DNA of 64,000 nucleotides from an uncultured Chitinophagales bacterium. Its GTDB lineage: Bacteria; Bacteroidota; Rhodothermia; Balneolales; Natronogracilivirgulaceae. Under the pieces are notes generated by a model. It worked only from the letters and a program-made list of their open reading frames with translations, had not been told where the DNA came from and did no database searches. Positions 28,480-45,047 of the stretch are shown one piece after another (position 1 is the stretch's first letter; each line of letters opens with the position of its first letter). Location: positions 18,658 through 82,657 of the forward strand of contig CAZDIA010000008.1 of the NCBI GenBank assembly GCA_964505385.1, in the 5' to 3' direction. Both the position numbers and the translations under genes were made by a program.

Positions 28480-28515
28480 TTTGAATGGAATCTAATTTCT
28501 CCTTAATTATATTTG
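28480..28515 (+). promoter_or_regulatory. Putative promoter of the GHL10-GHL10-symporter operon
   Basis: TATATTTG at 28508-28515 lies 37 nt upstream of the ATG at 28552. TTTG at 28480-28483 is upstream of it, with a somewhat long spacer. Confidence 0.4.
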
Positions 28516-28551
28516 AAACTAAATCTAATATCTGTTGGATTAAGAAAATTT

Positions 28552-29754
28552 ATGAAATTGATTCTGATTATTATCACAATTCTATTATGCTATGGCTGCT
28601 CAGAATCAGACTCCGAAACCAAACCGCAAATAAGGGGAGTCTGGCTTACCAATATTGATTCAGATATTATGTTTTCCTACGAAAACACTGCTGAGGCAAT
28701 GCAGTTTCTCTCCGATCGCGGATTTAATGTGGTGTTTCCGGTGGTCTGGAATGCCGGATATACGCTGTATCCGAGCGAGGTGATGGCGGAATACTTCGGC
28801 GAAGATTATCGCCTTCATCCGGATTTTGCCGATGACGACCGTGATCCGCTGCAGGATATCATCACCGAAGCCCATCGGCACGGCATGGAGGTAATGCCCT
28901 GGTTTGAATACGGTTTTGCCGCCTCCCATGATGAAAACGGCGGACATATCATAGAAGCCTACCCTGATTGGGCTGCCAAAGACAGCCTCGGCAATTTGCT
29001 CACCAAAAATGATTTCGAGTGGATGAACGCCATCAAACCGGAGGTTCAGGATTTTATTCTGGAACTGATCGGAGAGGTGATGGAAAACTACGATATCGAC
29101 GGCGTGCAGGGTGATGACCGGTTGCCTGCAATGCCTACCGAAGGCGGTTACAGCGACTATACCGCTTCACTTTACGAAGAAGAATCCGGCAACGAAGTGC
29201 CGCTTGATCCCAGAGAAGATGAGTTTCTGCAATGGAAAGCGGACAAACTCTCAGATTTCGGCGGAAGGCTCTATGAAAAAGTAAAAGCCCATGATGAAGA
29301 TTACATCGTCTCGCTCTCGCCGAGTGTTTATCCCTGGTCCAAAAACCACTATTTGCAGGATTGGCCGGAATGGATCCGCCGCGGTCAGGTAGAACTGGTC
29401 CATCCGCAGGTCTACCGGTACGAAGTCGATCAATACATCGAAACGATGGAAGAAACGATGGACTATTACTCCGAAGCTCTGGAAGAGTTGCATGAACAAG
29501 AGCCCGGAAAACAGGTACTGATGGCACCGGGAGTCCTCATAAAAGTTGGAGACCGCTATAACGGCCCGGATTATGTTAACCGGGCGCTGGATTTCCACAG
29601 AGATATCGGCATCGCCGGAGAGGTCTATTTCTTTTATGAAGGCCTCCACGAAAGCAACGAAAACCTCGGAGATAGCCTCTATTATAATCACTACTACGAA
29701 CCGGCCGAATTGCCTTACCGCGATCAGCCGAGAAGAATCGCTGGGACGGAATAA
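28552..29754 (+). CDS. GHL10 (DUF187, YngK/YddW-like) glycoside-hydrolase-like lipoprotein
   Basis: The ATG at 28552 gives the lipoprotein signal MKLILIIITILLCYGCSE. RGVWLTNIDS..., GFNVVFPVVW, PWFEYGFAA and DGVQGDDRLPAMP are the DUF187/GHL10 pattern. Confidence 0.8.
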   Translation: MKLILIIITILLCYGCSESDSETKPQIRGVWLTNIDSDIMFSYENTAEAMQFLSDRGFNVVFPVVWNAGYTLYPSEVMAEYFGEDYRLHPDFADDDRDPLQDIITEAHRHGMEVMPWFEYGFAASHDENGGHIIEAYPDWAAKDSLGNLLTKNDFEWMNAIKPEVQDFILELIGEVMENYDIDGVQGDDRLPAMPTEGGYSDYTASLYEEESGNEVPLDPREDEFLQWKADKLSDFGGRLYEKVKAHDEDYIVSLSPSVYPWSKNHYLQDWPEWIRRGQVELVHPQVYRYEVDQYIETMEETMDYYSEALEELHEQEPGKQVLMAPGVLIKVGDRYNGPDYVNRALDFHRDIGIAGEVYFFYEGLHESNENLGDSLYYNHYYEPAELPYRDQPRRIAGTE

Positions 29755-29786: not shown

Positions 29787-31775
29787 ATGCCTTTTGATAC
29801 CATTTACCACCGACGCAACAAATCATTGCAGCGTTTGAGCAGTATTGTATTTCTTGCGGTTGCTTTGCTGCTTTCATCCGGTTCTGTACAGGCCGGTAAG
29901 ACCAATAATGATGAACCCGACCAAGAGCTTCGCGGCGTTTGGATTACCGAAACCAACAGTCATTTGATGTTCGACCGTAAGCGTCTTGCTTCTGCGATGG
30001 ACTATTTGGCTGATAACGGCTTTAATGTGGTTTTTCCGGTTGTTTGGTTCCAGCAATATACACTTCACCCAAGTGATGTAATGGCCGAATATTTCGGCGA
30101 GGATAAACGCCAATCCCCGGCTTATGCCGGACAAAACCTGGATCCGCTAGAAGATATCATCAGCGAGGCTAAGAGGGTAGGTATTGAAGTAATACCTTGG
30201 TTTGAATACGGCTTTGCCGCTTATAATGAGGTTTTCGCCAACCGGGATTTCATCATCGAAACCTATCCGGAGTGGGCTTCTAAAAACAGGGAGGGAGAAA
30301 TTGCCCAGGATGGCAGTGGCTTTTCCTGGATGAACGGTTTCAAGCCGGAGGTCCAGGATTTTATGCTGGAGTTGATCGAAGAAGTCATTGAAAATTACGA
30401 TATCGACGGGATTCAGGGGGATGACCGGCTACCCGCCATGCCGATTGAAGCAGGCTACAGTGATTATACGGCTGACCGTTACCGTGATGAGCATGATGGC
30501 GAAGACCCGCCCTCCAATGAAAACAGCAACGCTTTTGTCCAGTGGCGCGCCGATATCCTTTCCGATTTCGGCGGCGATTTATATGAGATGGTCAAAGATC
30601 ACGATGAAAACCTGATCGTGTCGCTTTCTCCGAGTGTGTACAACTTTTCAAAAAACAATTTTCTGCAGGATTGGCCCGAATGGCTGGAGCGAGAACAGGT
30701 GGATATCATTCATCCTCAGGTTTATCGAAGAGATTTGAGTGCCTACACGAGCACTCTCGACCAACAGCTCAATCAGTTTGATGAAGATAATCAGCATAAA
30801 TTTACCCCCGGCGTACTTTCCGGTCTGAGAAGTGATGATGTAGTAACCCCTGATACATTAGCACTCAAAGTTGAAGCTAATCGTGAGCGAGGGGTAGCAG
30901 GAGAAGTATTTTTCTTTTATGAAACCATCCATGAAATGAATAATAATGCAGCAGATACTCTCCGTGAAAAAGTCTATCAAAATGAAGCATGGCTGCCTCA
31001 CCGGGATGGTGAATTATGGAGGGATGAGGGCACTGTAGCTAAGCATACAGACGATCAAACGGAGATAGAAGGCGACTGGGAAACCACAGATGAATACGAC
31101 GGGTATCGCAACGATCCGCTGCGCGTTGACGGAGGATCGGAGGCTTCCATCACCTGGAATGTCGATGTTCCCTATAACGCCTGGTTTGATGTCTATGCGC
31201 ACATCCCCTACCTCTCCCGCGGTACTGATGCAACCACGGCGGCGCCTTTCCGGGTTTCCGATTCAGATGGAGAAATAACAGAGGTTGATATCGACCAGAC
31301 TACCCGTGCAAGCCGGGCCTGGGTTCGGTTGGGAGAAGTATTTCTGGAAGAAGGTTCACACTCTGTGGTCAGCCTGGATGCTTCCGAAACAGATAGTACC
31401 AGCCCAATTTATGCGGATGCAGTCATGGTTGCCATCAATCGCAAATTGTCGCCGGAGGTCAATGTCATTACCCATTCACCGGATGATCCGGTTGCCGCTG
31501 AGAGGCCGGAAAGAGTTGAGCTGAAGCAAAATTACCCCAACCCGTTTAATCCGGTAACAGCAATCGAATTTGCCATCCCTGAACCGATGCCCGTCGAAGT
31601 TACCATATATGATATTATGGGACGTAAAGTGCAAACTCTTGTAGATCAATCACAAATGGAGGCCGGCTCTCATCAGCTCGAGTTTGATGCAACCGGTTTG
31701 GCGAGCGGAAAATATATTTACCGGCTTTACACGCCGGAAGGAACCAACTCTCAGATTATGACTCTGGTCAAGTAG
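29787..31775 (+). CDS. GHL10 (DUF187) glycoside-hydrolase-like protein with extra beta-sandwich region and T9SS CTD
   Basis: Paralog of the preceding gene, collinear over about 370 aa (RGVWITETNS..., GFNVVFPVVW, PWFEYGFAA, DGIQGDDRLPAMP). It has about 170 additional aa, then NYPNPFNPVTAIEFAIPEPMPVEVTIYDIMGRKV...ASGKYIYRL...MTLVK. Confidence 0.85.
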   Translation: MPFDTIYHRRNKSLQRLSSIVFLAVALLLSSGSVQAGKTNNDEPDQELRGVWITETNSHLMFDRKRLASAMDYLADNGFNVVFPVVWFQQYTLHPSDVMAEYFGEDKRQSPAYAGQNLDPLEDIISEAKRVGIEVIPWFEYGFAAYNEVFANRDFIIETYPEWASKNREGEIAQDGSGFSWMNGFKPEVQDFMLELIEEVIENYDIDGIQGDDRLPAMPIEAGYSDYTADRYRDEHDGEDPPSNENSNAFVQWRADILSDFGGDLYEMVKDHDENLIVSLSPSVYNFSKNNFLQDWPEWLEREQVDIIHPQVYRRDLSAYTSTLDQQLNQFDEDNQHKFTPGVLSGLRSDDVVTPDTLALKVEANRERGVAGEVFFFYETIHEMNNNAADTLREKVYQNEAWLPHRDGELWRDEGTVAKHTDDQTEIEGDWETTDEYDGYRNDPLRVDGGSEASITWNVDVPYNAWFDVYAHIPYLSRGTDATTAAPFRVSDSDGEITEVDIDQTTRASRAWVRLGEVFLEEGSHSVVSLDASETDSTSPIYADAVMVAINRKLSPEVNVITHSPDDPVAAERPERVELKQNYPNPFNPVTAIEFAIPEPMPVEVTIYDIMGRKVQTLVDQSQMEAGSHQLEFDATGLASGKYIYRLYTPEGTNSQIMTLVK

Positions 31776-31815: not shown

Positions 31816-33651
31816 TTGGTTTTAATTGATTACATCATCATTGCCGTTTATATGATCATTCTGGTCAGTGTCGGGATTTACGGCAAACGGCAAGCAGAGA
31901 AAGGCATCGACAGCTTTTTCCTCGGGAACCGGAAAATTTCCTGGTGGATGCTCGGCTCTTCCGGTATGGCCTCAAATCTGGATGTGGCCGGTACATTGAT
32001 TATTGTCGCTTTTATCTACGCTATCGGTATTCAGGGGATTTTTATTGAAATCCGCGGCGGTGTGGTGCTGATCATGGCTTTCCTGATGATCTTCATGGGA
32101 AAGTGGAACCGCAGGGCAGGAGTTATGACGATTGCCGAATGGATGAAACTCCGGTTTGGTGACGGTAAGCAGGGAAACGCAGCTCGAATCTTAAGTGCCA
32201 CAGCTAATTTAGTTTTTGCCATAGCTATTGTGTCCTATTTTGCACAGGGCGGCGGGATTTTTCTCGGCAGCATCCTCGGTATTTCCCCGGAACTTGCCGC
32301 CATCCTGATGATCGGACTCGCATCAATCTACACCATAACCAGTGGTCTTTTCGGAGTCGTCTATACCGACGTTTTCCAGGGATTTCTGATCTTTTTCACC
32401 ATCATTTATGTCTGCATTCTCGCTTTTGTTCAGTTTGATTTACCCGAAGAGTTTATGGTATCGGTTCCCGCCGACGGCGGATTTAAAATGGTTCCCACTA
32501 CGCTTTCTGATTGGAGCACTTTCTGGCCTACACTCACTATGGACCTTCCGGGGGATTATGCCCAGTACAATTTGTTCGGGCTGGCCGTACTTTTTTACCT
32601 CTTTAAAACTTCCATTGAGGGCAGCGGCGGAACCGGCGGTTATTTGATCCAGCGCTACTTTGCCGCTAAGAACGACCGCGAAGCCGGTCTGCTCAGCCTT
32701 TTCTGGATTTTTCTGCTTTCCTTCCGGTGGCCGTTTGTGGTAGCCATTGCCATTATAGGGATATCTATGGGCCTGGGTGGGGACGTCATCGAAAATCCGG
32801 AAGAAGTACTTCCGATTGTGATTATGAATGAGCTGCCAATTGGCATTACCGGTCTGCTCGTTGCCGGCCTCATAGCCGCAGCAATGTCCACCTTCGACTC
32901 TATCGTTAACGCCGGTGCGGCTTATTGGGTAAAAGATATTTACCAGCGATATCTCAACCCAGAAGCGAATGGCCGCCAATTGCTGTTACACAGCCGCGGC
33001 TCTTCACTGCTTATTATCATTATCGGGGTTCTGCTGACTTATACTTATGATGACCTTAACGAAGTGTGGGGTTGGATCACCATGAGTCTTGGTTCCGGAC
33101 TGATTGTCCCTCAGCTAATCCGCTGGTATTGGTGGCGCTTCAACGGCTACGGATTCGCTTTTGGCACCTTTGCCGGAATGGTTATGGCCGTACTTCAACG
33201 CATTATCATGCCCGAATCTCCGGAATATGTCAACTTTTTGCTTATCAGCAGCGTCACGTTCATCGTATGCATCATGACCACTTTTATGACCGAGCAAACT
33301 GGTTTCAGCGATCTTAAAAAGTTTTATGCCAACACACGGCCGTTCGGTTTCTGGGGACCGGTTCGCAGTATTTTCTCACCTGAGCAGATGGAAGAGATCA
33401 ACAAGGAAAACCGCCGTGATATCATCTCTATTTTTATCGCGGTACCCTGGCAGCTGACGTTATTCATCACACCGATGGTATTCATGACCAAACAGTGGGA
33501 TTACTTTTTCATCATGCTTGCAATACTGATCGGCCTGTCGGTAGCACTGTACTTTACATGGTTCCGGCACTTGTCCGATATCGACCGCGAAGAGCCGGTT
33601 CCGGCAAATGATCCGGATGTTGAAATAATCGGCGGACGTGAGAAATCTTGA
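31816..33651 (+). CDS. sodium:solute symporter (SSF) family transporter
   Basis: 611 aa, about 13-14 TM segments. The N-terminus LIDYIIIAVYMIILVSVGIYGKRQ and internal motifs are typical of SSS transporters. A TTG start is inferred. Confidence 0.88.
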   Translation: MVLIDYIIIAVYMIILVSVGIYGKRQAEKGIDSFFLGNRKISWWMLGSSGMASNLDVAGTLIIVAFIYAIGIQGIFIEIRGGVVLIMAFLMIFMGKWNRRAGVMTIAEWMKLRFGDGKQGNAARILSATANLVFAIAIVSYFAQGGGIFLGSILGISPELAAILMIGLASIYTITSGLFGVVYTDVFQGFLIFFTIIYVCILAFVQFDLPEEFMVSVPADGGFKMVPTTLSDWSTFWPTLTMDLPGDYAQYNLFGLAVLFYLFKTSIEGSGGTGGYLIQRYFAAKNDREAGLLSLFWIFLLSFRWPFVVAIAIIGISMGLGGDVIENPEEVLPIVIMNELPIGITGLLVAGLIAAAMSTFDSIVNAGAAYWVKDIYQRYLNPEANGRQLLLHSRGSSLLIIIIGVLLTYTYDDLNEVWGWITMSLGSGLIVPQLIRWYWWRFNGYGFAFGTFAGMVMAVLQRIIMPESPEYVNFLLISSVTFIVCIMTTFMTEQTGFSDLKKFYANTRPFGFWGPVRSIFSPEQMEEINKENRRDIISIFIAVPWQLTLFITPMVFMTKQWDYFFIMLAILIGLSVALYFTWFRHLSDIDREEPVPANDPDVEIIGGREKS

Positions 33652-33909: not shown

Positions 33910-33950
33910 AAAAAAAAGCCCTGCCGAAGCTACTCAACTCCAGCAGGGCT
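33910..33950 (-). terminator. Rho-independent terminator of the 33973-35304 gene
   Basis: AGCCCTGC / GCAGGGCT stem. The minus strand reads the hairpin followed by TTTTTTTT. Confidence 0.7.
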
Positions 33951-33972
33951 TTAGTTTGGAAGAATAAAAATC

Positions 33973-35304
33973 TTACTTCACAAAACTCATAGTTCGCGAC
34001 ACATTAACTTCACCGGCTCGCAGACGATAAATATAGGTTCCGCTTGCAAGTCCTGATGCATCGAAGGTCACTGAATGACGGCCGGAGCTTTGTTCTTCAT
34101 CCACAAGCGTTTTAACATGCTGCCCGGCAGCATTATAAACTTCCAGAAGTACTTCTTGAGCTTGCGGAATTTCATATTCTATGCTGGTTGAGGGGTTAAA
34201 AGGATTAGGATAATTTTGGTCGAGTTCATATCCCTCAGGCAGTTCCGTAATGATGCTGCCTCCAACTGATGTTACAACTTCATCTACACTGTAACTTTTC
34301 AGCGGATTTCGGGCTGATAACACAATTAACCGCCTCCGTTCGGTATCCAGCGCTGTAAATCCGTTCAACTGTACATTTTCGCGGATATCTTCATCCTCTT
34401 CACTCTCAAAAGTGCTGGCTACATAGCGAATGTCCTCATAATCCGTTACATCAGCCACATGAAACTTTGCCGTAGGAAACTTCGGCCCTGCAGCCAGCAA
34501 AGTAGTTTCGTCGGACATGACACCGGTTGAAACATTCATTGTTTGAGCGGGGAGAATCTCGGCAACAGTACCCAATTCACCTGTTTCGAGACTCATTTTT
34601 CTAACATCGGCATCGGCACCATTTACCCAGACACTATCTTCTCCGACAATTTCCGCAATGCCTCCGCGTGCATGGTTTGCATCTTCAACATCAAATATTT
34701 CAGCTTCTCCAAACATGCCTTCATCGGCATCGAAATGGGCAACGGCAACATTTTCATTTCCGAAAGCCCCGGTCACAAAGCTGAGGTCATTCCCTGTGCC
34801 TGAAATTCCGAAGGAATCTCCATAACGGGCATCCAGATCTTCTTCAAAGACAACTTCAGGCTCACTTCCGGAATCTTCCCAACGGTAAACTTTGTAGGTG
34901 CCTCCACCGTCAATGAGGTTGATGGCAAAAATCTGGCCGTCACGGGTAACATCGACGTCAGCTAAATCAAAGTCACCTCCATCTACGATACCATCATCTT
35001 CGCCCCGGCTCAGATAGCCTTCCAGTTCTCCGTTTTCGGGATTTACCACAGCTATTTGCTGCTGACCATCTATTCGCGTATGTACATACAATTCATCCGC
35101 CTCAGGATTGTAAGCTCCACCGCGATGCCAATAGACAGCAGTGCCATCTTCATCATCATCCCAGAGCCATTCAACATCAGCAGGATCAACATTCCATTCC
35201 GGCGTTTCGAGAAAGACAAACTCATCAGCGGCTTTTACTGTCCCAGCCACTGCAAAACACAGAACCAAAAGTGTTATCATTACATTAGGTATCAATTTTT
35301 GCAT
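33973..35304 (-). CDS. acidic T9SS cargo protein with unnamed propeller-like domain (paralog family), encoded directly downstream of susD
   Basis: The start at 35304 gives the signal peptide MQKLIPNVMITLLVLCFAVAGTVKA (the track start 35400 would overlap susD). The domain shares motifs with 19227-23126 and 43740-45047 (VTRDGQIFAINL, YKVYRWEDSGSEP, RYGDSFGISG). The CTD reads NYPNPFNPSTSIEYEIPQAQEVLLEVYNAAGQHV...ASGTYIYRL. Confidence 0.85.
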   Translation of the reverse strand: MQKLIPNVMITLLVLCFAVAGTVKAADEFVFLETPEWNVDPADVEWLWDDDEDGTAVYWHRGGAYNPEADELYVHTRIDGQQQIAVVNPENGELEGYLSRGEDDGIVDGGDFDLADVDVTRDGQIFAINLIDGGGTYKVYRWEDSGSEPEVVFEEDLDARYGDSFGISGTGNDLSFVTGAFGNENVAVAHFDADEGMFGEAEIFDVEDANHARGGIAEIVGEDSVWVNGADADVRKMSLETGELGTVAEILPAQTMNVSTGVMSDETTLLAAGPKFPTAKFHVADVTDYEDIRYVASTFESEEDEDIRENVQLNGFTALDTERRRLIVLSARNPLKSYSVDEVVTSVGGSIITELPEGYELDQNYPNPFNPSTSIEYEIPQAQEVLLEVYNAAGQHVKTLVDEEQSSGRHSVTFDASGLASGTYIYRLRAGEVNVSRTMSFVK

Positions 35305-35386
35305 AGTATTTGCTTTTTGAGGGTGAATGTGAATTGTTTTCGATTTTTTCGCAATTAAAATACACTGGTTAACTGGGTTCTGATAG

Positions 35387-36889
35387 TTAATTTTTTGCAT
35401 CCCACCATACGTTGTCGAGCATGTTGTTGCCTTGTCGGTCGATCGCTTCCTGAAGATTATCGTTATTCAATCCCTCTTCGGAGTTCGGATAACGCAAACG
35501 TCTCGGCAGCTCACCATCTGTTTCACCGCCGGACGGATCACCAATTTCCTGCAGCTCCGGATACCCGGTTCGTCGAATTTCCGCGTAGGCTTCCATACCC
35601 TGACCAAAAATGGCCAACCATTTCTGAGTGATAATTTGCTCGAGCTGCCCTTCGTCATCCAGGGTGGGGTCGAAGGCGGCCGGCGAGTCATTTATATAGT
35701 CATCAATCTCTTGCTGTTCAATTTCGAATTGATCAATCGAATCATAAAATTCAAGAGATGCACGTATACCGTCTTCGTAGTGTTCAGCAGGGTCTCCAGG
35801 TCCCCATCCCCGAAGAGCTGCTTCAGCCTCCAGAAACTTTACCTCGGCAGTCATCATAATGCGGATGGGCGTTTCGATATCATGAAAATATGAGGTTTCC
35901 CTGGAATATAATCCCGGGGCGTTTTGGGTTTGAGAAAGCTGCGTGTCCGAAAGTCCGTTCTGTAATCCCTGGCGAATCTGTGTGATATCCGATGGCGCCA
36001 GGAACACTTCAAGCCGGGGATCTTCTAAATCCGATAAATTGTCGGAGAGAGTTTGGCTGATTCGGTATTCGTCAAACCGGTAAATCCAATGGTGGTGATT
36101 ATCGTGCACAAAATCTCCGGTTCCACCACCGGGGTCGACTTCAAGTTTTACATTGTGATTATTGTTTTCAAGTATCGGACGGCCGTTCAATACATCACCT
36201 ACGTGTTCTTGAGCAAGACCCGGATCTGCATAAGAGACTCGCATGGCAAGCCTAAGCCTCAGAGAATTTGCAAAACGGCGCCACATATCCACATTTCCGT
36301 TAAATAAAACATCAGCGGATCCCAGCCTGAACTCGGCACCGTCGTCAAGAGCTTCTTCTGCTTCTGTCAGCTCATTTAACATATCTCTGTAAATTTCTTC
36401 CTGCGCATCGTATGCCGGTTGGGTATTCCGTTGCATAGCATCAAAATAAGGAACATCACCCCAATAGTCGGTAACCCGGTGCATGATCCAGACTCTCAAG
36501 ATACGGGCTTTTGAGTGAATGTTGAGCATCTCCTCATCATCCGCAGTTAATTCCAGCGCTTCCTGAATGTTACTGCCGAAGTTGGAGTAGGCAGCATCCC
36601 AGTATGCGGTAAGCCAATCCTGCCGGGTTTCATAGCGGTCCGTACCCCAGCCGGATTCTATATTGGAATAATATTGCGCATAGTGATTGCCATATAAATG
36701 CTTGCCACGCTGGTACACATCAAAGCGAAGAGCACCATAAACCATACCGCGGGTAATGAGCGCTTCAGGCTGGACATCTGTCGGACTGGTAGGATCTGTA
36801 TTGACAGATTCAAAATTATCTGTACAGGCTACAACTCCCACCATTAAAAACAGCGTGAAACTAAGAATGAAAAATGTTTTAAACTTCAT
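35387..36889 (-). CDS. susD: SusD/RagB-family nutrient-binding outer-membrane lipoprotein
   Basis: MKFKTFFILSFTLFLMVGVVACTDNFESVNTDPTSP is a lipoprotein signal with a typical SusD N-terminus. The body is TPR-like helical. The gene follows susC directly. Confidence 0.9.
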   Translation of the reverse strand: MKFKTFFILSFTLFLMVGVVACTDNFESVNTDPTSPTDVQPEALITRGMVYGALRFDVYQRGKHLYGNHYAQYYSNIESGWGTDRYETRQDWLTAYWDAAYSNFGSNIQEALELTADDEEMLNIHSKARILRVWIMHRVTDYWGDVPYFDAMQRNTQPAYDAQEEIYRDMLNELTEAEEALDDGAEFRLGSADVLFNGNVDMWRRFANSLRLRLAMRVSYADPGLAQEHVGDVLNGRPILENNNHNVKLEVDPGGGTGDFVHDNHHHWIYRFDEYRISQTLSDNLSDLEDPRLEVFLAPSDITQIRQGLQNGLSDTQLSQTQNAPGLYSRETSYFHDIETPIRIMMTAEVKFLEAEAALRGWGPGDPAEHYEDGIRASLEFYDSIDQFEIEQQEIDDYINDSPAAFDPTLDDEGQLEQIITQKWLAIFGQGMEAYAEIRRTGYPELQEIGDPSGGETDGELPRRLRYPNSEEGLNNDNLQEAIDRQGNNMLDNVWWDAKN

Positions 36890-36907
36890 ATATGAGACCG
36901 TTAGCAA

Positions 36908-39900
36908 TTAAAAAACTATATTTACGCTGAAACCCAGACTGCGGTTCTCCGGCATGGAAAAAGATTCCAGCCCCTGTGCATTACCGATATTGAAACTTCC
37001 TTGTGCCGGACTAAAACCGGGTGTGTCTTTGTGAAAGTAAAACAGATTGCGTCCGATGAGGGACACTTGTAGGCTTTGAAAGGGAGTTACATCTACCCAA
37101 TTGACCGGGAGATCATAAGTAAATACAATTTCACGCATTCTCAGATAAGTCGCATCATATACAAACTCCTCGGTTATCGGGCTGCCACCGCCTACCCGGC
37201 CCCAATAATCCTGCGGGTTTACGGCTTTTTCGTTTTCCACATATTCGCCGTCATCAATTTCCACAACGCCTTCGGCAACATAGCCTTCACGATCTTCCTC
37301 ATCCAGATCGCGGGTATCATACCATTCCTGGCGCCCCTCAAGTGTAAATTCCGGAAAACCTCGCTGAGCGGCAAATGAATTGGTGAAAGAATAGACATCT
37401 CCGCCGACGGATATATCGACCAGTGTGCTTAATGAGAAATTCCGGTAGGTCACCTCATTGAAAAATCCTCCGGTAAAGTCCGGATTGAAATTCCCGAGTA
37501 CATGGGTTCCATCGTCTCGAACGGGAAGCCCTTCGTCATCTATGATTCGTTCTCCGTCATCATTGCGTTTATAGCGCTCACCGACGATATCACCAAACGG
37601 TTCTCCTACTGACGCCTGAACTGTAGCTCCCTGAATCTGCCCGAGGAAAAAGTTTTGGAGCTCTCCGGTTAGTTCAACTACTTCATTTCGATTGAAACCG
37701 ATATTGAACCTGCTGGTCCACTCCCATCCGGTTTCTGAATCAACCGGGATAAATGTGAGTGAGCCTTCAATACCTTCGTTTCGGATCATACCTGCATTAA
37801 TACGTGCGGCTGAAAAGCCAGAGGTTCTCGAAACCGGAATGGGCAAAATCTGATTCCGGGTATTTTCCCTATAAATTCCCATGTCAAGTTTGACACGTTC
37901 ATTAAAGAATCGCAAATCCAAGCCTGCTTCAACTGATCTTGTAATTTCCGGTTTCAGATCAACCGGAGGTAATTCGGTTGGAAGGTCTGCAAATTGTTGC
38001 CCTTTGTGGCCGGGATTTACGCTGTAGGTGAAATTTGTAACAAAGGGCGGCCCGCCGGAGCCAACCTCCGCCCAGGAAGCCCTGACCTGGCCAAAGGGAA
38101 ACACTTCGGAAATCAGATCGAAAGCTTCGGTAAATACGAATGATCCGCTAACCGAGGGGTAAATAAACGGCAGGTTTTCAACCGGCAACGTGGAATCCCA
38201 GTCAACCCGGCTTGTGAGATCGAGAAATGCATAGTCCCGAAATCCGAACTCAGTGGTTGCAAATACCGATTGAACTTCAGCACGGCTGAGTATACTTATA
38301 TTATTAGCGGATTCGGCATTGGAGATATCATAAAAATCCGGAATAAATATTCCCTCTCCGATGTAGCCGACTGTGCGGTCATTAAATCTGCGATAACTTC
38401 CGCCGATATTGGTTTCAAAATCTAAATCTTCACTCAAAGCCCGGCTATACTGCATCATTGCCCGCACATTGAATTCAACAAAGTTGCGGTCTCTTGTTGT
38501 AAAAGTGGCATCGGTACGATAAGGAGTATATTGCGCCCGCCTGTATTCCCGGATTTCATTAAAATAATCCAAGCCGGTAACAAGGTTAAAATTCAGGTTT
38601 TCGCTTGCATCATAGTTAATGCGGGCAAAACCGTAGAAACGGTCACGTTCATCCTCACTGATATTCAGGTTATGTGCCCAAAAAGGATTCATATTACGGG
38701 TATCCGAACCTTCCTGCGCTGCGGCATCCCATGTGCGGGCAAGGCCTTCACCTGTACGGAAATTCTCCAGGTCGGAAAGCCGCTCACTGGTTGGCATGCG
38801 AATCAGTGCCTGCATCGGGTTGTCGGGGTCTTCTGCAAGTGGGGGGCGATTATCAATCGACTGTGTGACGTAATTTATTCGGGCTTCAACATTAAGATCA
38901 TCAAAAAAGTCACGGCCGGCTCGGAGTGACACAAAATGTCGTTGCAGATCATTATCCGGATAATTGCCTTGGTTCATCGTATTGCTGTACGAAATCCGGT
39001 AGGTGTGATCATCTCCGCCTCCTGAAAGTGCCAGTATATTATTGGCGGTAAACGAGTTTTGAAAATATTCATCAAACCGGTCGGGTTGAGCCTCGTAAGG
39101 CCTGACTTCGCCGGTCCAGTCCAGAGCCATGGTTCCGTCCATAGCCGGTCCCCAGCTGTTAGTTTCCGAGTCCGGAATGATGTAGTGCTCATTTGCTTCA
39201 TCAAACTCAAGAGTACCGTTGGAACCACGCCCGAAATCAGTCTGCATCTCAGGCATTATATAGGGCTGCTCCACAGTAAAGTTAGAGGTGAATTCAACTC
39301 CGATTCCCGGCCGCTCTTGGCCCGATCGCGTCGTAATTTCCAAAACGCCATCGGCAGCACGGCTTCCGTAAAGCGCTGCGGCATTCGGCCCCTGAAGAAC
39401 ACTCATCGATTCAATTTCGGCCATGTTTACCTGATTAAGTCCGGAACCGAAATCTCGTCCGCCCTGAGCTGTTGCACTCATTCCGCCGCTGTTGTCAATC
39501 GGGACGCCGTCAACTACGATCAAAGGTTGACTTGTGCCGGTTAGTGAACGATGCCCCCTGATCACAATCCTCGTGCTGCCGTCGGGACCGGAACCGAGAC
39601 CGTCAATCTGAACATTGGAAACACGACCTTGAAGAGCAGAAACGGCATTCATGCCGCCACTGCGACTGATTTCCTCTCCGCCGAATTCCTGAACGGTGTA
39701 TCCGAGAGATTTTTCTTCCCGCGTCATACCAAAAGCAGTTACCACCAGATCTTCCCCCACGAGAGCTTCCGGTTGCAGAAAAACCTCAAGCTCGGTCTCT
39801 TCATCGACGGTAACTATCTTTTCGCTGAATCCAAGATATCTGAAAATCAGCTCATTATGCCCCTCAGGTACCGTAATTTCAAAATTACCATCAATATCAG

Positions 39901-40078
39901 TACTTGTCCCGAAATCGGTGCCCACAACCATTATATTAACACCGGCAAGCGGTTGGTCGCTTTCAGCATCGAAAACAGTTCCGCTGACATTAAAATCCTG
40001 TGCTGAAATGGTACTGAATACGCCGGCACAAAAAATTATTACTAAAGATAAAAAACGGAATAGTATCGATATTTTCAT
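36908..40078 (-). CDS. susC: SusC/RagA-family TonB-dependent outer-membrane transporter
   Basis: 1056 aa. N-terminal carboxypeptidase-regulatory-like domain (VSGTVFDAESDQPLAGVNIMVVGTDFGTSTDIDGNFEI), then a plug (VLQGPNAAALYGSRAADGVLEITT), then a barrel ending in LGFSVNIVF. Confidence 0.93.
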   Translation of the reverse strand: MKISILFRFLSLVIIFCAGVFSTISAQDFNVSGTVFDAESDQPLAGVNIMVVGTDFGTSTDIDGNFEITVPEGHNELIFRYLGFSEKIVTVDEETELEVFLQPEALVGEDLVVTAFGMTREEKSLGYTVQEFGGEEISRSGGMNAVSALQGRVSNVQIDGLGSGPDGSTRIVIRGHRSLTGTSQPLIVVDGVPIDNSGGMSATAQGGRDFGSGLNQVNMAEIESMSVLQGPNAAALYGSRAADGVLEITTRSGQERPGIGVEFTSNFTVEQPYIMPEMQTDFGRGSNGTLEFDEANEHYIIPDSETNSWGPAMDGTMALDWTGEVRPYEAQPDRFDEYFQNSFTANNILALSGGGDDHTYRISYSNTMNQGNYPDNDLQRHFVSLRAGRDFFDDLNVEARINYVTQSIDNRPPLAEDPDNPMQALIRMPTSERLSDLENFRTGEGLARTWDAAAQEGSDTRNMNPFWAHNLNISEDERDRFYGFARINYDASENLNFNLVTGLDYFNEIREYRRAQYTPYRTDATFTTRDRNFVEFNVRAMMQYSRALSEDLDFETNIGGSYRRFNDRTVGYIGEGIFIPDFYDISNAESANNISILSRAEVQSVFATTEFGFRDYAFLDLTSRVDWDSTLPVENLPFIYPSVSGSFVFTEAFDLISEVFPFGQVRASWAEVGSGGPPFVTNFTYSVNPGHKGQQFADLPTELPPVDLKPEITRSVEAGLDLRFFNERVKLDMGIYRENTRNQILPIPVSRTSGFSAARINAGMIRNEGIEGSLTFIPVDSETGWEWTSRFNIGFNRNEVVELTGELQNFFLGQIQGATVQASVGEPFGDIVGERYKRNDDGERIIDDEGLPVRDDGTHVLGNFNPDFTGGFFNEVTYRNFSLSTLVDISVGGDVYSFTNSFAAQRGFPEFTLEGRQEWYDTRDLDEEDREGYVAEGVVEIDDGEYVENEKAVNPQDYWGRVGGGSPITEEFVYDATYLRMREIVFTYDLPVNWVDVTPFQSLQVSLIGRNLFYFHKDTPGFSPAQGSFNIGNAQGLESFSMPENRSLGFSVNIVF

Positions 40079-40456
40079 TCTCTACAGGTTAAGATTAAAT
40101 ATTTTCCAAAAAAACAGATTGCTAAGTAGAAGTAGTTTTTTTCGATATCCGACTAAATCGGAATCTTTGTCTGATTTTGATTCACTTGAAATCAATTTTA
40201 TTCCCGGATTTTAATGGGATTCTATTCAATTGAAAACTCTCAAAATGCGTCGAATGCTAAGCATTCTGACTTTTTTGGGCAGTTATCATTCCGAACCAAA
40301 GATTCAATACATAAACCACCCTAAATATGCTTTTTATTTTTAAAAAATCAATGTAAAATTGCTGATATATTAACAAATTATAACATTATTGTTTTAACAT
40401 TGACCCAACATTACGGGTAATCCAAGTTGGTACACTTTATCATTATCAAAGAAATT

Positions 40457-42430
40457 ATGCGAGTAATAAGCTTTTCCGCCATTACTTCACTGTCCATTTT
40501 TTTATTCGGATGTGAAGTCGCTGAAAATCAGAATTCTGATACCAAAACAAATCACGAAGATATAACTGCTGATGTCCTTATTGCAGGCGGCGGAACAAGC
40601 GGTATCACTGCCGGTTTGCAGGCTGCAAGAGATGGTGCGGAAACCGTGATTGTAGAGCCTACACCCTGGCTCGGCGGCATGCTCACTTCTGCGGGTGTAA
40701 GTGCCACTGATGGCAATCATCAACTGCCATCGGGTATTTGGGGAGAGTTCCGGCAGCATTTGTATGATCACTACGGCGGACCGGATGAGGTTGAAACCGG
40801 ATGGGTCAGTAATACGCTTTTTGAACCTTCGGTAGGTAATGACATCTGGAACCGTATGGCCGAGGTAGAAGACCTGCTTACCGTTTATCACGGATACTAT
40901 GTTGAAGAGGCCCACACGGCAAATAACCGGGTAACCGGTGCCATGTTTAAGAGCGGCGATGGTGAACGTCTCACAGTGGAAGCTGGTATCTCCATTGATG
41001 CTACCGAATACGGAGATCTTATGGCTTTATCCGGAACCGAATACCACCTCGGTTTTGACTCCCGTGAAGATACCGGTGAGGAACTTGCTCCTCATTATGA
41101 TAACGAGATTGTTCAGGATCTCACCTACACCGCTATTCTGAAGGATTATGGTGAAGGTGAGGATAAAACCATTGAACGGCCAGCAAATTATTACCCTCAA
41201 ATGTTTACCGGTGCGTGCAAAGAAGTTGCTGAGGATCCCGATGAGTTTGACGGAGTGGATTGCGAAGAAATGCTGGACTATGCCCGTTTACCGAACGATA
41301 AATTTCTGATCAACTGGCCTATTCACGGAAATGATTACTACCTGGAAGCCATGGAGCTTGACCACCATGAGCGAAAACTGGCCTATGAGGCTGCAAAGGA
41401 TAAAACGCGGCAGTTTATCTATTTCATCCAGACTGAAATCGGATTTTCACATCTTGGCCTCGCCGATGATGAATATGATACCGATGATCTGTTTCCCCAC
41501 ATGCCTTATCACCGGGAAAGCCGGCGGCTGGAGGGAGTGGTTCAGTTCAATATGATGGACATGAAAGACATGTATCAACGCCCGCTGTATAAAACAGCCA
41601 TTGCTGTTGGTGATTATCCGCTTGACCATCATAGGAGATTAAATCCGGGAACTGAAAAACTCGCCGAAGGTGACATTCCGCCCTACGAGTTTGAAACTGA
41701 TATTTTCCCTTCCATACCATCCTACGCCATTCCCTATGGCGCCATGGTTCCCGCACAAACGGACGGATTACTGGTTGCGGAAAAAAGCCTGTCGGTTACC
41801 AGCATTGCCAACGGGGCTACCCGGTTGCAGCCGGTGGTTATGGGAATTGGACAGGCGGCGGGCGCCGCAGCTGCACTGGCGGCAACATCAGGATATCAGC
41901 CTCGAGATGTGAATCCCAGAGAATTACAGAGTAATCTAATCGAACAGGGCGCATGGATGCTGCCGTTTCTGGATTCTACTCCGGATGACTGGCATTTTGA
42001 ATATCTGCAAAAAACCGGTTTAAGCGGAGTCCTGAAAGGCGAAGGCATTCCTGTCGAATGGGCAAACGAAACCCGGATTTACCCCGACAGCTCGGTTACT
42101 GCAGATGTTATGGATGAAGCCATGCTAACTGTCGGTGAAGAAATTTCAACCTCCGGCAATGAATTCGTAACTAGAGGAGAAGCGGTTGAACTGTTGGCGG
42201 CTTTTATAGAAGATACAGAAACCGATGGAATTGAATTTGAAGATGTTGACCCTGACACCGACCTCTATGGTTATCTGAATAGGTTCGATGGTGCCGGACT
42301 GCTGGAATACTGGGCCGAGTCGGACCGGTTTTATCCTGATGAACCTCTTGCCCGGAAAGAACTTGCTTATCTGATACATGCAATATTCGATCCGTTTGAA
42401 GAAAATCCCGGACTAAACCCGGAAGAATGA
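40457..42430 (+). CDS. FAD-dependent oxidoreductase (PF12831-like) lipoprotein with C-terminal SLH-like repeats
   Basis: The ATG at 40457 gives MRVISFSAITSLSIFLFGCE. The dinucleotide-binding motif is DVLIAGGGTSGITAGLQAARDGAETVIVEPTPWLGGMLTSAGVSATDG. The C-terminal ~130 aa contains two F..D....Y...L...G...G........TRGEAVELL / ARKELAYLI segments. Confidence 0.85.
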   Translation: MRVISFSAITSLSIFLFGCEVAENQNSDTKTNHEDITADVLIAGGGTSGITAGLQAARDGAETVIVEPTPWLGGMLTSAGVSATDGNHQLPSGIWGEFRQHLYDHYGGPDEVETGWVSNTLFEPSVGNDIWNRMAEVEDLLTVYHGYYVEEAHTANNRVTGAMFKSGDGERLTVEAGISIDATEYGDLMALSGTEYHLGFDSREDTGEELAPHYDNEIVQDLTYTAILKDYGEGEDKTIERPANYYPQMFTGACKEVAEDPDEFDGVDCEEMLDYARLPNDKFLINWPIHGNDYYLEAMELDHHERKLAYEAAKDKTRQFIYFIQTEIGFSHLGLADDEYDTDDLFPHMPYHRESRRLEGVVQFNMMDMKDMYQRPLYKTAIAVGDYPLDHHRRLNPGTEKLAEGDIPPYEFETDIFPSIPSYAIPYGAMVPAQTDGLLVAEKSLSVTSIANGATRLQPVVMGIGQAAGAAAALAATSGYQPRDVNPRELQSNLIEQGAWMLPFLDSTPDDWHFEYLQKTGLSGVLKGEGIPVEWANETRIYPDSSVTADVMDEAMLTVGEEISTSGNEFVTRGEAVELLAAFIEDTETDGIEFEDVDPDTDLYGYLNRFDGAGLLEYWAESDRFYPDEPLARKELAYLIHAIFDPFEENPGLNPEE

Positions 42431-42514
42431 CTTTATTCTGTCAATTCTTGCGCCTGATAAAATCATTTGATTATAACACCTTTGTTTTGCCTCATTTTTA
42501 ATCCTCTCAAAGCT

Positions 42515-43732
42515 ATGATGTACTTCTACCGTTTGTTTTTGTTCTCCATAATCTTTTTGTTTCCTGTTTCACTGATTTCCCAGCCGCTTGAGTGGATGGA
42601 AATCACCGATGATTACGAGCTGCCGGAAGGCCTTCGGTTTTTCGGTCACAGCTTTGAGGACTCGAACATTGAAGCGTGGTATCTCGAGCTGGACCTGAAT
42701 GAAAATGGTCTGGCAGTCGAGGCGATTCCTGGTTCCGATTTTCAGTCCATCTCAGATTACGACGATAAAGAGGGTGTTTACGCAGCCGTTAACGGAGGCT
42801 ACTTCGCCGGCGAGGACGTAGTCTCAGCTGTCGTCACTCCGGATGGCGATGTGCCGACCCGCAACATCGCGACACTGAATCGGGACGGCAACACTCATCA
42901 TGTCACCCGAAGTATGTTCAGCCTGGATGATGAAATTAAGCCATCAGTGGACTGGATTTATCATCACGGGCTTAATGTTGATGATATCTACCGGTATGAG
43001 GAACCACTTCCCAACGCTCCGGGTGAACCGTCGGAGTCACCACCGGCAGTGGATGACGGTGAAATCATGGAGGGTCTGGCAACCGGCATCGGCGGCGGGC
43101 CGGTTCTAATCACCGAAGGTGAGGAGAATATCACGCACGATGATGAAGTTTTTTTCGGATCCGGTATTCAGGCTGGTTCAAACAGAGCCCGCACGGCTGT
43201 GGGTTATACCGAGGACAACCGGGTCATAATGATGGTGGTAAGCGAAGCCGGAAGCAGTACCGGTGTTACGTTAAGCCGGCTTGCAGAAGAACTGCTTGAA
43301 CTCGATGTAGTAGCGGCGATGAACCTGGACGGTGGAGGCTCTTCTCAAATGACGCTTGATCAGGAAAATATACTATCGACCGGTAGATCCATTCCGAATG
43401 TGCTGGCGGTTGTATCCAGAGGCCGCGTAACTTCAGCTGCGGTTACCGGAGATGATGAGCTTCCCCGAAGTGTCCGGCTTCATCAGAATCATCCCAACCC
43501 GTTTAATCCGGATACATCCATACCATTCTCAATTGATCATGCAGTACCGGTAACTCTCACCATTTATGATATGACCGGCAGAAAGGTGGCAACTGTGATA
43601 CAAAATGAAACCTATTCTGCCGGCCGGCATTCCGTGCGTTTTGATGCCTCTGAGTTGAGTACCGGAACCTACGTTTACCGATTGTCAACACCGGAGATGA
43701 CACGGTCACGTTTAATGACATTAATCAGGTAG
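42515..43732 (+). CDS. phosphodiester glycosidase (NAGPA / DUF2233-like) with T9SS CTD
   Basis: AAVNGGYF, GIGGGPVLI, ARTAVGYT and AMNLDGGGSS are the phosphodiester-glycosidase family motifs. The C-terminus reads NHPNPFNPDTSIPFSIDHAVPVTLTIYDMTGRKV...STGTYVYRL...MTLIR. Confidence 0.85.
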   Translation: MMYFYRLFLFSIIFLFPVSLISQPLEWMEITDDYELPEGLRFFGHSFEDSNIEAWYLELDLNENGLAVEAIPGSDFQSISDYDDKEGVYAAVNGGYFAGEDVVSAVVTPDGDVPTRNIATLNRDGNTHHVTRSMFSLDDEIKPSVDWIYHHGLNVDDIYRYEEPLPNAPGEPSESPPAVDDGEIMEGLATGIGGGPVLITEGEENITHDDEVFFGSGIQAGSNRARTAVGYTEDNRVIMMVVSEAGSSTGVTLSRLAEELLELDVVAAMNLDGGGSSQMTLDQENILSTGRSIPNVLAVVSRGRVTSAAVTGDDELPRSVRLHQNHPNPFNPDTSIPFSIDHAVPVTLTIYDMTGRKVATVIQNETYSAGRHSVRFDASELSTGTYVYRLSTPEMTRSRLMTLIR

Positions 43733-43739: not shown

Positions 43740-45047
43740 CTATTTGATAAAACTCATCTGTCGCTGCATCACGTGATCACCGGCCTGCAACCGGTACAGA
43801 TAGATACCTGATGAAAGTCCGGAAGCGTCAAATTCGGAAATATGGGTCCCGGCCTGCATTTGTTCCTCATCCAACAGGGTTTTTACGTAGCGACCTTGCG
43901 CTGTAAACACGCTGAGGGTTACAGCAGCAGATTCCCTGAGTGTAAATTCTATCTGCGTGACAGGGTTAAACGGATTGGGATAGTTTTGCCGGAGTTCAAA
44001 GTCACTCGCAACTTCAGCATCTACCGGTGAGGAGGTCGTGGTTTGCTCAAGCGGGAAAGAGGCAATTGCATTGTTTGTCGAGAGCATCACCAGTGTATTA
44101 CGATTATGATCAAATTCGACTGCACCGGTTGCATTGGGGTTTTGATACACACTCAACTGAGATGATGACGAGATGAGCTGCGGATTTTGTAAATCGGTGA
44201 TATCCACCAGATCGATAACCTGGTCCGCATCCCCTGTACCCCGGGGTGCTGTCGCAATGACCTGAAGGGTGTCGAAATCGGCGAAATCGATATTCATACT
44301 TCCGGTAGAGACAACCTCACCCGGAATAGAACTTCCGGTTTCACCGGTTTCCGTACTGATTTTCGTCGGCTCCGTACCCGATCCGTTGACCCATAAGCTG
44401 TCCTCACCGGCAATAGGTGAAATACCTCCGCGTGCAATACCGGCCGGAGCATTCAGAAAATCAGGTTCCGAGAGGCTATGATCATCAGCGTCATACTCCA
44501 GTTTCAGGATATCTTCATTACCGGTACCGGCAAAGTACAGCCAGATGCCATCTCCGGTTTCATCAATACCCAGGGCATCGCCATAGCGGGCTGCATTGAC
44601 ATCTCCCTGGAAAAGGATTTCCATTTCGCTTGCTTCATCTTCCCACATATAGATAATGAAATCTTCTTCGGAGGAGTCAACCACACTATTGGCTGCGAAA
44701 ATGGTACCATCTTCAGTAGCACCAACTTGATTGAGTGCCAGAAACCCGGTTTCAATAACCTCCTCTGTATCCAGGGTTCCTTCCACATTTCCGGTGGATG
44801 AATCCAAGACATAAACAGCCGGCTCCTCGGTATTGCTTGCCACCAAAATATTTCCGGTAGCCGGGTTTAAACTCATACCTCGCGTGGCGTTATCGTCGTT
44901 GTCCAACCAATCCTCATCGATGGGTAGAACTTCCCATTCTGCTGAACCAATCTCCAATTGATAGCTTTCCTGAAGGTTTTGGGTGTTGGCGGTGTAAAAT
45001 CCAATGCAAATTATGAGGCCTAACAGTATCGTCTGTTTCATGAGCAT
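43740..45047 (-). CDS. acidic T9SS cargo protein with unnamed propeller-like domain (paralog family)
   Basis: Signal peptide MLMKQTILLGLIICIGFYTANTQ. Motifs GATEDGTIFAANS, FIIYMWEDEASEME and RYGDALGIDETG are shared with 33973-35304 and 19227-23126. The CTD reads NYPNPFNPVTQIEFTLRESAAVTLSVFTAQGRYV...SSGIYLYRL. Confidence 0.85.
   Translation of the reverse strand: MLMKQTILLGLIICIGFYTANTQNLQESYQLEIGSAEWEVLPIDEDWLDNDDNATRGMSLNPATGNILVASNTEEPAVYVLDSSTGNVEGTLDTEEVIETGFLALNQVGATEDGTIFAANSVVDSSEEDFIIYMWEDEASEMEILFQGDVNAARYGDALGIDETGDGIWLYFAGTGNEDILKLEYDADDHSLSEPDFLNAPAGIARGGISPIAGEDSLWVNGSGTEPTKISTETGETGSSIPGEVVSTGSMNIDFADFDTLQVIATAPRGTGDADQVIDLVDITDLQNPQLISSSSQLSVYQNPNATGAVEFDHNRNTLVMLSTNNAIASFPLEQTTTSSPVDAEVASDFELRQNYPNPFNPVTQIEFTLRESAAVTLSVFTAQGRYVKTLLDEEQMQAGTHISEFDASGLSSGIYLYRLQAGDHVMQRQMSFIK

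Follow-up and report, generated by a model that had tools for sequence, protein, structure and literature searches.

A T9SS-sorted, DUF4623-like beta-propeller protein encoded downstream of susCD in a soda-lake Bacteroidota bacterium, a putative surface glycan-capture protein

We analyzed a 64,000-nt stretch of DNA (hereafter referred to as the window) from an uncultured bacterium of the order Balneolales, which occurred in soda-lake DNA metagenomes only; RNA runs containing the window were searched for and none were found. The locus of interest carries, on one strand, a susC gene, a susD-like gene, a spacer, a gene for a protein with a type IX secretion system (T9SS) C-terminal domain (CTD), hereafter referred to as the cargo, and a strong intrinsic terminator (Table 1). 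The susC product matched TIGR04056 with 572 bits (E = 2.4e-171; cutoff 368), and the product of the following gene is a SusD-family lipoprotein with the lipobox VVAC/TDNFE (slashes mark cleavage sites), so that the two form a SusC/SusD pair. The cargo gene starts at the ATG at 35304, exactly 82 nt from the susD stop codon, and thus takes the place in which SusE/F genes would be expected. A longer reading frame (475 aa, ATG at 35400) overlaps susD, and its N-terminus lacks a signal peptide. Inspection of the spacer revealed neither a terminator-like hairpin nor a TAnnTTTG (Bacteroidota -7) motif, and compared with the locus of a close relative (L001) it is poorly conserved except immediately 5' of the ATG. 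The terminator is kept in that relative with compensatory changes. The short same-strand spacing and the shared terminator suggest an operon, and the cargo gene is probably co-transcribed with susCD.

Table 1. Genes and features of the locus, with positions in the window
Feature	Coordinates	Strand	Description
DUF4434	23603-24514	+	no signal peptide, predicted cytoplasmic
AGE-family epimerase	24511-25686	+	no signal peptide, predicted cytoplasmic
GH38 alpha-mannosidase	25675-28410	-	no signal peptide, predicted cytoplasmic
GHL10a (PF02638)	28513-29754	+	predicted lipoprotein; match to PDB Cwp19 (5oq2), 3.6e-9
GHL10b	29787-31775	+	Golvesin_C domain and T9SS CTD
SSF sodium:solute symporter	31816-33651	+	inner membrane; convergent with cargo gene
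Intrinsic terminator	33915-33952	-	3' of cargo gene; 17-bp stem with 8 G-C pairs, then T-run
Cargo	33973-35304	-	443 aa; signal peptide, six-bladed DUF4623-like beta-propeller, linker, T9SS type A CTD
susD-cargo spacer	35305-35386	-	82 nt
susD-like lipoprotein	35387-36892	-	about 500 aa; PF12771, E = 4.6e-93; PF12741, 5.2e-91
susC, SusC/RagA-type TonB-dependent transporter	36908-40078	-	1056 aa; TIGR04056, CarboxypepD_reg_2, Plug
PF12831 FAD-dependent oxidoreductase	40427-42430	+	predicted lipoprotein, LFGC/E; 9.3e-94; divergent from susC
NAGPA-type phosphodiester glycosidase	42467-43732	+	T9SS CTD
Cargo paralogue	43740-45047	-	435 aa; T9SS CTD; 35% identity to cargo over full length, E = 2e-77
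SprA translocon gene	57514-63984	-	SprA_N PF14349, 7e-94

The cargo begins with a Sec signal peptide (residues 1-25; MQKLIPNVMITLLVLCFAVAGTVKA/ADEF, read by eye from the sequence), followed by the propeller (about 26-340), a linker and the CTD (365-437), which scored above the curated cutoffs of both TIGR04183 (39.7 bits; cutoff 23) and PF18962 (36.3 bits; cutoff 27). No lipobox was found; the sole cysteine has leucine at position -1 and was therefore not taken for one. The window also encodes SprA and at least six other CTD proteins, among them the cargo paralogue, which lies at the module edge, convergent with the NAGPA gene. Judged by its signal peptide, its CTD and the presence of a T9SS in the organism, the cargo is a predicted T9SS type A substrate. 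An earlier note on this DNA had described the gene order, the occupied SusE/F slot, the Sec signal without a convincing lipobox, the T9SS CTD and a propeller-like body, all of which were confirmed by the coordinates, domain matches, terminator stem and structure model. It had also singled out an acidic body. The cargo is indeed acidic (D+E, 19.4%), but every exported protein of the locus is equally so (15-24%), and we rejected acidity as a cargo-specific trait; it fits the soda-lake origin.

The AlphaFold2 model of the cargo (pLDDT 85.8, pTM 0.78) has six blades of four strands each, followed by a linker and a CTD folded as a beta-sandwich, and its top Foldseek match was PDB 4FTD (E = 1.6e-10), a DUF4623 protein. 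Searched as a single sequence, the cargo had no match in the PDB, and 4FTD was reached only with a profile of the cargo family (hmmsearch, E = 1.1e-12); this profile also aligned with one of canonical DUF4623 (hhalign, 99.2% probability, E = 2.8e-19). The body did not match PF15416 even at E <= 10, and this family was matched by 18 of 52 multi-domain relatives. On profile and model comparisons, then, the cargo propeller belongs to the DUF4623 superfamily, though as a divergent member; no paper in our literature search mentioned DUF4623. The second Foldseek match, PorZ (5m11, E = 4.3e-9), combines a beta-propeller with a CTD and raised the question of whether the cargo is an accessory of the T9SS machinery itself. 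We consider this very improbable. The superposition is poor (TMq only 0.38, rmsd 11 Å), 5m11 has 748 residues against 443 in the cargo, the single propeller of the cargo compares with two in PorZ, and two paralogues in one catabolic locus, within a family of hundreds of multi-copy members, do not suit a machinery component; the shared propeller and CTD explain the match. The candidate was rejected on architecture and context.

We further compared the gene neighbourhoods of cargo relatives (loci designated L below). In the other informative loci, about 19 in number, GHL10, NAGPA, the PF12831 flavoprotein and the SSF symporter recurred as partners, and about half of the T9SS-type loci that were informative have genes of the GHL10/NAGPA/PF12831/SSF/DUF4434/AGE set. 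In L004 and L005/L006, relatives of about 29% identity are flanked by two GHL10 genes with SSF and PF12831, with or without NAGPA, and the same set adjoins a Chitinophagales relative in L017; PF12831 also co-occurs in L001. Relatives in L013, L014, L019 and L020 have NAGPA as a neighbour, alone or accompanied by DUF4434 and AGE, and NAGPA is present in L001 and L004 as well. The DUF4434/AGE/GH38 genes are syntenic in L001; both L013 and L014 also have DUF4434, and L014 has AGE in addition. Amino-sugar genes found nearby are NamZ, an MFS transporter and GH3 (L012), GH3 (L010), a NagB/PIG-L fusion (L014) and GH94 (L019/L020). Several lineages, with the labels Bacteroidota, Rhodothermales and Balneolales, were found to have the module; the scan of genome contigs used a 7-sequence subset and is biased to relatives that keep the motifs TxDGQIF and GEDSLWVNG. 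Through its GHL10 domain, Cwp19 acts as a lytic transglycosylase on peptidoglycan (PMC6016235). Literature searches on DUF4434, PF12831 and DUF2233 returned nothing bearing on the module, and one on peptidoglycan with NamZ, SusD and PUL gave no description of a peptidoglycan PUL.

The proximity to susCD is far less widespread. A word-indexed search with the cargo body retrieved, besides the cargo, a single relative (79% identity), and the wider family was gathered by exhaustive phmmer search. The susCD-cargo order is kept in that one close relative only (L001/L002), and no SusC or SusD was found near the T9SS-type gene in the other T9SS-type loci examined. Conservation of the arrangement in related genomes, which the earlier note had named as a condition of its proposal, thus extends to this relative only. 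Moreover, the SusD beside the cargo belongs to PF12771 and that beside canonical DUF4623 to PF07980; since these are different subfamilies, the juxtaposition of cargo and susCD is secondary and lineage-specific. An ancestral susCD-DUF4623 unit was rejected on the same grounds, together with the lack of SusCD in most T9SS-type loci. With T9SS-type adjacency in a single lineage, belonging to a SusCD complex is not a trait conserved across the family; in the present organism the cargo may contact SusCD. Such a pattern could also be read as an accident of local rearrangement around a general surface adhesin or surface-layer-type protein uncoupled from uptake. Stand-alone homologues among housekeeping genes (L003, L027), PEP-CTERM versions in unrelated contexts, including Planctomycetes-like genomes in which the module is absent, and giant T9SS proteins that carry the propeller in 2-5 tandem copies and resemble adhesins are all in line with this. 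However, the recurrence of module-set genes, the presence of canonical members within PULs, the SusE domains fused to some relatives and the operon-like spacing and terminator speak against it, and we regard it as unlikely. As stand-alone homologues and module-less PEP-CTERM versions do exist, the propeller is a general surface module whose role may depend on context.

We then considered whether the propeller binds or catalyzes. Several polar residues (R36, R52, N104, R135 and D138) are invariant or almost so across anchor types, and Y115 and W117 are also conserved; R36, R135, D138, Y115 and W117 might just as well make up an active site as a binding site. Further Foldseek neighbours include catalytic six-bladed propellers, namely lactonase Drp35 and the Bacillus beta-propeller phytase 1poo (TMq 0.48-0.50), and the paralogue has a weak match to the SGL family (E = 0.013). 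The propeller might accordingly be an enzyme itself, for example a Ca2+-dependent phosphatase, phosphodiesterase, lyase or lactonase acting after NAGPA has bared a phosphomonoester, and displayed or secreted by the T9SS like GHL10b and NAGPA. Its recurrence beside NAGPA and the sulfatase gene adjoining one canonical DUF4623 member, both of which fit anionic glycans, would suit such a role. Nevertheless, we think an enzymatic function rather improbable, given that the cargo body had no sequence match to catalytic families at E <= 10 and that the likeness to propeller enzymes is generic, with WD40 proteins scoring equally well. Among the 52 multi-domain relatives, none has a catalytic domain fused to the propeller, while SusE is fused in seven and CHRD, Ig, CBM20 and CBM48 are further partners. 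These fusions and the tandem copies look more like the architecture of a binding protein. CBM fusions are typical of enzymes too.

Canonical DUF4623 genes of Bacteroidales likewise lie directly after susD (L024/L025, where GHL10 follows, and L026), and two of their products, P0221 and P0223 (the latter from L026), have a lipobox followed by acidic residues (LAGC/SDDY and LVSC/DEDY), a pattern of surface-exposed Bacteroidota lipoproteins. Because these counterparts combine lipoprotein signals with the post-susD position, the cargo resembles a module of this kind in which a T9SS anchor has replaced the lipid anchor. The earlier suggestion of a surface accessory delivered by the T9SS instead of by lipidation gains from this, from the DUF4623 homology and from the SusE fusions, and is reasonable as a description; the susCD-cargo order itself extends no further than the one close relative. 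We therefore favour, at about even confidence, the reading of the cargo as a non-catalytic, SGBP-like surface capture or accessory protein of a conserved glycan-utilisation module. In this scheme, the cargo would be exported by Sec, cross the outer membrane through the T9SS by means of its type A CTD and most likely remain attached at the cell surface, although type A cargo may instead be set free from the cell. GHL10b and NAGPA as T9SS substrates and the two propeller paralogues would form the surface parts, with GHL10a and the PF12831 flavoprotein as lipoproteins; SusCD at the outer membrane and the SSF symporter at the inner membrane would provide import, and GH38, the AGE-family epimerase and DUF4434 cytoplasmic processing. 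The likely substrate is an amino-sugar-rich, cell-wall-type glycan, namely peptidoglycan strands and/or sugar-1-phosphate diester polymers. The cytoplasmic GH38 mannosidase is at odds with a purely peptidoglycan substrate. We suggest that an amino-sugar or cell-wall glycan module gained SusCD in this soda-lake lineage, which would have brought the propeller gene into the SusE/F position.

Models of PUL surface complexes (utilisomes) rest on lipoproteins. If our reading is true, the replacement of a lipid by a T9SS CTD or PEP-CTERM would make glycan-capture modules independent of any single anchoring system. It would also offer a first functional context for DUF4623, whose structure has been solved and which the literature searched does not mention, and the recurrent link to GHL10, NAGPA, NamZ and NagZ-type genes points to the recycling of bacterial cell-wall glycans in soda-lake communities, a testable process of environmental relevance. 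More speculatively, and with little confidence, DUF4623-like propellers in general might be the substrate-recognition subunits of an undescribed GHL10/NAGPA/PF12831/SSF module that scavenges bacterial cell-wall glycans (necromass), held on interchangeable anchors (lipid, T9SS CTD, PEP-CTERM) and joined by SusCD only in some lineages.

Among known systems, the SusE/SusF SGBPs of Bacteroides PULs and utilisomes share with the cargo the same-strand slot after susD, a surface location (predicted for the cargo), the absence of a catalytic domain and, in some relatives, the SusE domain. They differ in having tandem Ig or CBM-like domains rather than a propeller, and the cargo has neither a lipid anchor nor a SusE (PF14292) domain, with a SusCD association that is not conserved across its family. 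T9SS cargo encoded within a PUL is exemplified by F. johnsoniae ChiA. The PEP-CTERM DUF4623 proteins (for example those of Bythopirellula goksoeyrii; P0161, P0195) have the same propeller and likewise pair a signal peptide with a sorting signal at the C-terminus, but their sorting is of the exosortase/PEP-CTERM type and no GHL10, NAGPA or SusCD lies beside their genes in the loci read. The mannan PUL of B. salyersiae encodes at least 10 CTD proteins (bioRxiv 10.1101/2022.07.15.500217), with a Sec signal and CTD in a SusCD locus as in the cargo. The earlier note knew of no characterisation of the organisation described here; T9SS substrates of PULs in general are already documented. Those characterised are glycoside hydrolases, and none of these PUL-encoded CTD proteins is described as a DUF4623-type propeller in the literature read. 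Canonical DUF4623 (PF15416; PDB 4FTD, BACEGG_03550, Bacteroides eggerthii) has a lipobox and an N-terminal extra domain of ~130 residues, both of which the cargo lacks; its propeller begins right behind the signal peptide, and the protein carries a T9SS type A CTD instead. The two nevertheless have homologous propellers with common R...GG...YxW...RxGD motifs, a gene directly after susD and a linked GHL10 gene (L024/L025), and the susC-susD-propeller order described here would parallel the susC-susD-DUF4623(lipoprotein)-GHL10 order of Bacteroidales through an independent origin.

[quoted passage not shown] Its body matched no Pfam family even at E <= 10 and no PDB sequence, and when 1.84 billion representatives were searched exhaustively with phmmer, 544 relatives of it came up (190 at E <= 1e-10), most of which carry the ~310-residue unit as one of 2-5 tandem copies in proteins of 800-2500 aa. 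Homology to DUF4623 follows from three results: profile A1, built from 27 copies of the cargo-type propeller domain, matched PDB 4FTD (1.1e-12), the one DUF4623 protein whose structure has been solved; profile-profile comparison of the cargo family with canonical Bacteroidales DUF4623 gave 99.2% probability (E = 2.8e-19); and 4FTD was the best Foldseek match of the cargo model (E = 1.6e-10), followed by generic propellers only (PorZ, YVTN propeller, Drp35, phytase and WD40 proteins). The structural check proposed in an earlier note, made from the sequence alone, thus returned a six-bladed propeller: the AlphaFold2 model (54 input sequences; pLDDT 85.8, pTM 0.78) is built of six four-stranded blades, with the N-terminal strands closing the propeller, and continues through a disordered linker (322-329) into a beta-sandwich C-terminal domain (CTD). 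The acidic propeller-like body described there held for fold and composition (19.4% D+E) but not as a trait of the cargo, since all exported proteins of the locus share an acidity that stems from its soda-lake origin.

Features of the window, with supporting evidence and predicted locations
Feature	Coordinates	Strand	Evidence	Predicted location
828-aa protein	4532-7018	-	right-handed beta-helix (pectate-lyase-like fold), PKD domain	
457-aa protein	17335-18708	-	CBM26 (starch-binding), DUF4397, T9SS CTD	
1299-aa T9SS-CTD protein	19227-23126	-	two more distant propeller copies (BLASTP 5e-7)	
DUF4434 protein	23603-24514	+	4e-87 to PDB 4H41	cytoplasmic (no signal peptide)
GHL10b	29787-31775	+	Golvesin_C (PF25275)	T9SS cargo
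Terminator hairpin	33952-33915	-	17-bp stem, T-run	
Cargo, 443 aa	33973-35304	-	ATG at 35304, exactly 82 nt past susD stop	T9SS cargo
SusD-like protein	35387-36892	-	PF12771 4.6e-93; lipobox VVAC/TDNFE	lipoprotein
susC (SusC/RagA transporter, 1056 aa)	36908-40078	-	TIGR04056 572 bits (cutoff 368); CarboxypepD_reg and Plug domains	
PF12831 FAD oxidoreductase	40427-42430	+	LFGC/E	lipoprotein
Cargo paralogue	43740-45047	-	CTD; 35% identity over full length; 8 kb from cargo	T9SS cargo
SprA/Sov (T9SS outer-membrane translocon, 2156-aa ORF)	57514-63984	-	PF14349 7e-94	
GHL10a				lipoprotein
NAGPA (phosphodiester glycosidase)				T9SS cargo
SSF symporter				inner membrane
GH38				cytoplasmic (no signal peptide)
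AGE epimerase				cytoplasmic (no signal peptide)

The susC, susD and cargo ORFs lie head-to-tail on the minus strand within 33973-40078. An alternative 475-aa reading of the cargo from 35400 overlaps susD and has an N-terminus without a signal peptide. The susD-cargo spacer contains neither a hairpin resembling a terminator nor a TAnnTTTG motif, and the terminator behind the cargo is kept in a related contig with compensatory changes. ORF coordinates and hairpin therefore bear out the three-gene layout, 82-nt gap and own terminator reported earlier, and the same is true of the sorting signals, namely a Sec signal (MQKLIPNVMITLLVLCFAVAGTVKA/ADEF), no lipobox, because Leu precedes the single Cys at -1, and a T9SS type A sorting domain at residues 365-437 (TIGR04183 39.7 bits, cutoff 23; PF18962 36.3 bits, cutoff 27). 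CTDs are present in at least six further window proteins, and the SprA gene, whose ORF ends 16 bases short of the window end, is direct evidence of a T9SS in the source organism.

We then compared the anchors of DUF4623 relatives. A search with the 4FTD sequence retrieved canonical DUF4623 proteins of Bacteroidales and Chitinophagaceae, in two of which (P0221 and P0223) acidic residues follow an N-terminal lipobox (LAGC/SDDY and LVSC/DEDY), the surface-export signal pattern of Bacteroidota lipoproteins. Canonical genes lie directly 3' of susC-susD at loci L024/L025 (P0213) and L026 (P0223), where the next genes encode GHL10 and a sulfatase, respectively. Other relatives, e.g., in Bythopirellula, end in a PEP-CTERM signal (PF07589), and a single propeller family thus carries signals for lipidation, T9SS or exosortase sorting. 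Compared with canonical DUF4623, the cargo has lost a ~130-residue N-terminal extra domain and gained the CTD; it looks like the equivalent, anchored through the T9SS, of a family of PUL surface lipoproteins.

Synteny with one metagenome contig, L001, extends over the entire 22-kb locus, and the cargo there is 79% identical. Beyond it, we surveyed neighbours at several metagenome loci and at 17 GTDB loci, the latter from records assigned to Rhodothermales, Balneolales, Cyclonatronaceae, Chitinophagales, Calditrichota, Phycisphaerales and other groups, using phmmer with the window proteins and Pfam on unassigned neighbours, and detected no SusC or SusD genes. Conservation of the susCD-cargo arrangement was thus not upheld beyond L001 at the loci surveyed, and, judged from gene neighbourhoods, the T9SS-type propeller appears not to be a general SusCD partner. 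Moreover, the window SusD (PF12771 type) and the SusD beside canonical DUF4623 are unrelated at subfamily level, so the two susD-propeller juxtapositions arose independently. The proposal of a SusE/F-slot protein delivered by T9SS instead of lipidation accordingly survives in the DUF4623 homology and the canonical lipoproteins 3' of susD, but not in SusCD adjacency outside L001.

In contrast to the susD juxtaposition, the GHL10 link was found with both anchor types. L004, L005/L006 and L017 combine two GHL10 genes with genes for an SSF symporter, a PF12831 oxidoreductase and, in some cases, NAGPA; NAGPA, with or without DUF4434 and AGE epimerase, occurs at L013, L014, L019 and L020, and a GHL10-like gene at L010, L014 and L020. 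At least one gene of the GHL10/NAGPA/PF12831/SSF/DUF4434/AGE set was present at ~9 of ~19 informative loci, some of the nine being related lineages and hence non-independent. Stand-alone relatives sit beside housekeeping genes (L003, L027), and PEP-CTERM versions have unrelated contexts. Several neighbouring features were also recorded. In distant relatives (L004 1-1599, L005 1-1582), a PorV-family gene stands directly upstream of the GHL10/SSF/propeller module, and before that gene comes a ~1090-aa gene without Pfam match, possibly PorU. A GntR/periplasmic-binding-protein regulator follows. L018 (2748-3809) has a weak, below-threshold PorV/UPF0164 match before its propeller genes. At three loci, the gene directly upstream of the DUF4623-like one encodes a 630-685-aa protein whose sole Pfam domain is the CTD (L004 7831-9876, L005 7821-9875, L012 7892-9778); it may be an additional conserved partner.

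One characterised GHL10 domain, that of Cwp19, acts on peptidoglycan as a lytic transglycosylase (PMC6016235). A window GHL10 has a PDB match to Cwp19, and NAGPA has PDB matches to NAGPA-type enzymes, which cleave GlcNAc-1-phosphodiesters. E. coli DigH is a further glycan-strand hydrolase of the GHL10 family. Elsewhere, relatives neighbour NamZ (exo-N-acetylmuramidase), an MFS permease and GH3 (L012), GH3 and a metallophosphoesterase (L010), a NagB/PIG-L fusion (L014) and a GH94 phosphorylase (L019/L020). The theme common to the module would be amino-sugar or cell-wall-type glycans, with peptidoglycan strands and/or sugar-1-phosphate-diester-linked polymers as candidate substrates; the cytoplasmic GH38 mannosidase does not sit easily with it. 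Golvesin_C, on GHL10b and on the NAGPA enzyme of L004 (17920-19614), suggests a shared carbohydrate-binding module that would steer both to one substrate. The PF12831 protein accompanies the module in four or five lineages, and its closest solved structures match the FAD-binding N-terminus only. DUF4434, whose PDB match was deposited as a 'putative alpha-L-fucosidase', accompanies AGE epimerase in the window, L001 and L014 and lies beside NAGPA in L013 and L014. Just upstream of the locus, the 1299-aa protein also has a weak DUF5018 match, a DUF5689 domain and a weak CBM20-like tail; beside it, the 457-aa protein may be a T9SS-anchored alpha-glucan-binding protein. The 828-aa beta-helix protein is far from the locus.

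Among 52 multi-domain relatives, the propeller was fused to CTD (31), SusE (7), CHRD (5), DUF4623 or DUF5018 matches, Ig, CHB_HEX_C_1, Fn3_assoc, CBM20 and CBM48, and never to a catalytic domain; these fusions and the tandem copies point to a module for binding or presentation rather than to an enzyme. An enzymatic propeller is unlikely, even though the fold is similar to that of phytase and lactonase propellers and R36, Y115, W117, R135 and D138, conserved in all anchor types, could form an active site as well as a sugar/anion binding site. We give still less weight to an unrelated adhesin. From its domain and gene context, the cargo could quite plausibly be a capture or accessory protein, devoid of catalytic activity, that works alongside SusCD in the utilisation of amino-sugar or cell-wall glycans.

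T9SS substrates inside PULs include F. johnsoniae ChiA. They are likewise already known from the mannan PUL of B. salyersiae, where CTDs occur on at least ten proteins, including five glycoside hydrolases (bioRxiv 10.1101/2022.07.15.500217). We found no mention of DUF4623 in the literature searched. Relative to these systems, the identity of the cargo family as DUF4623, the anchor swapping among DUF4623-like propellers and their link to the GHL10/NAGPA/PF12831 module appear to be new.
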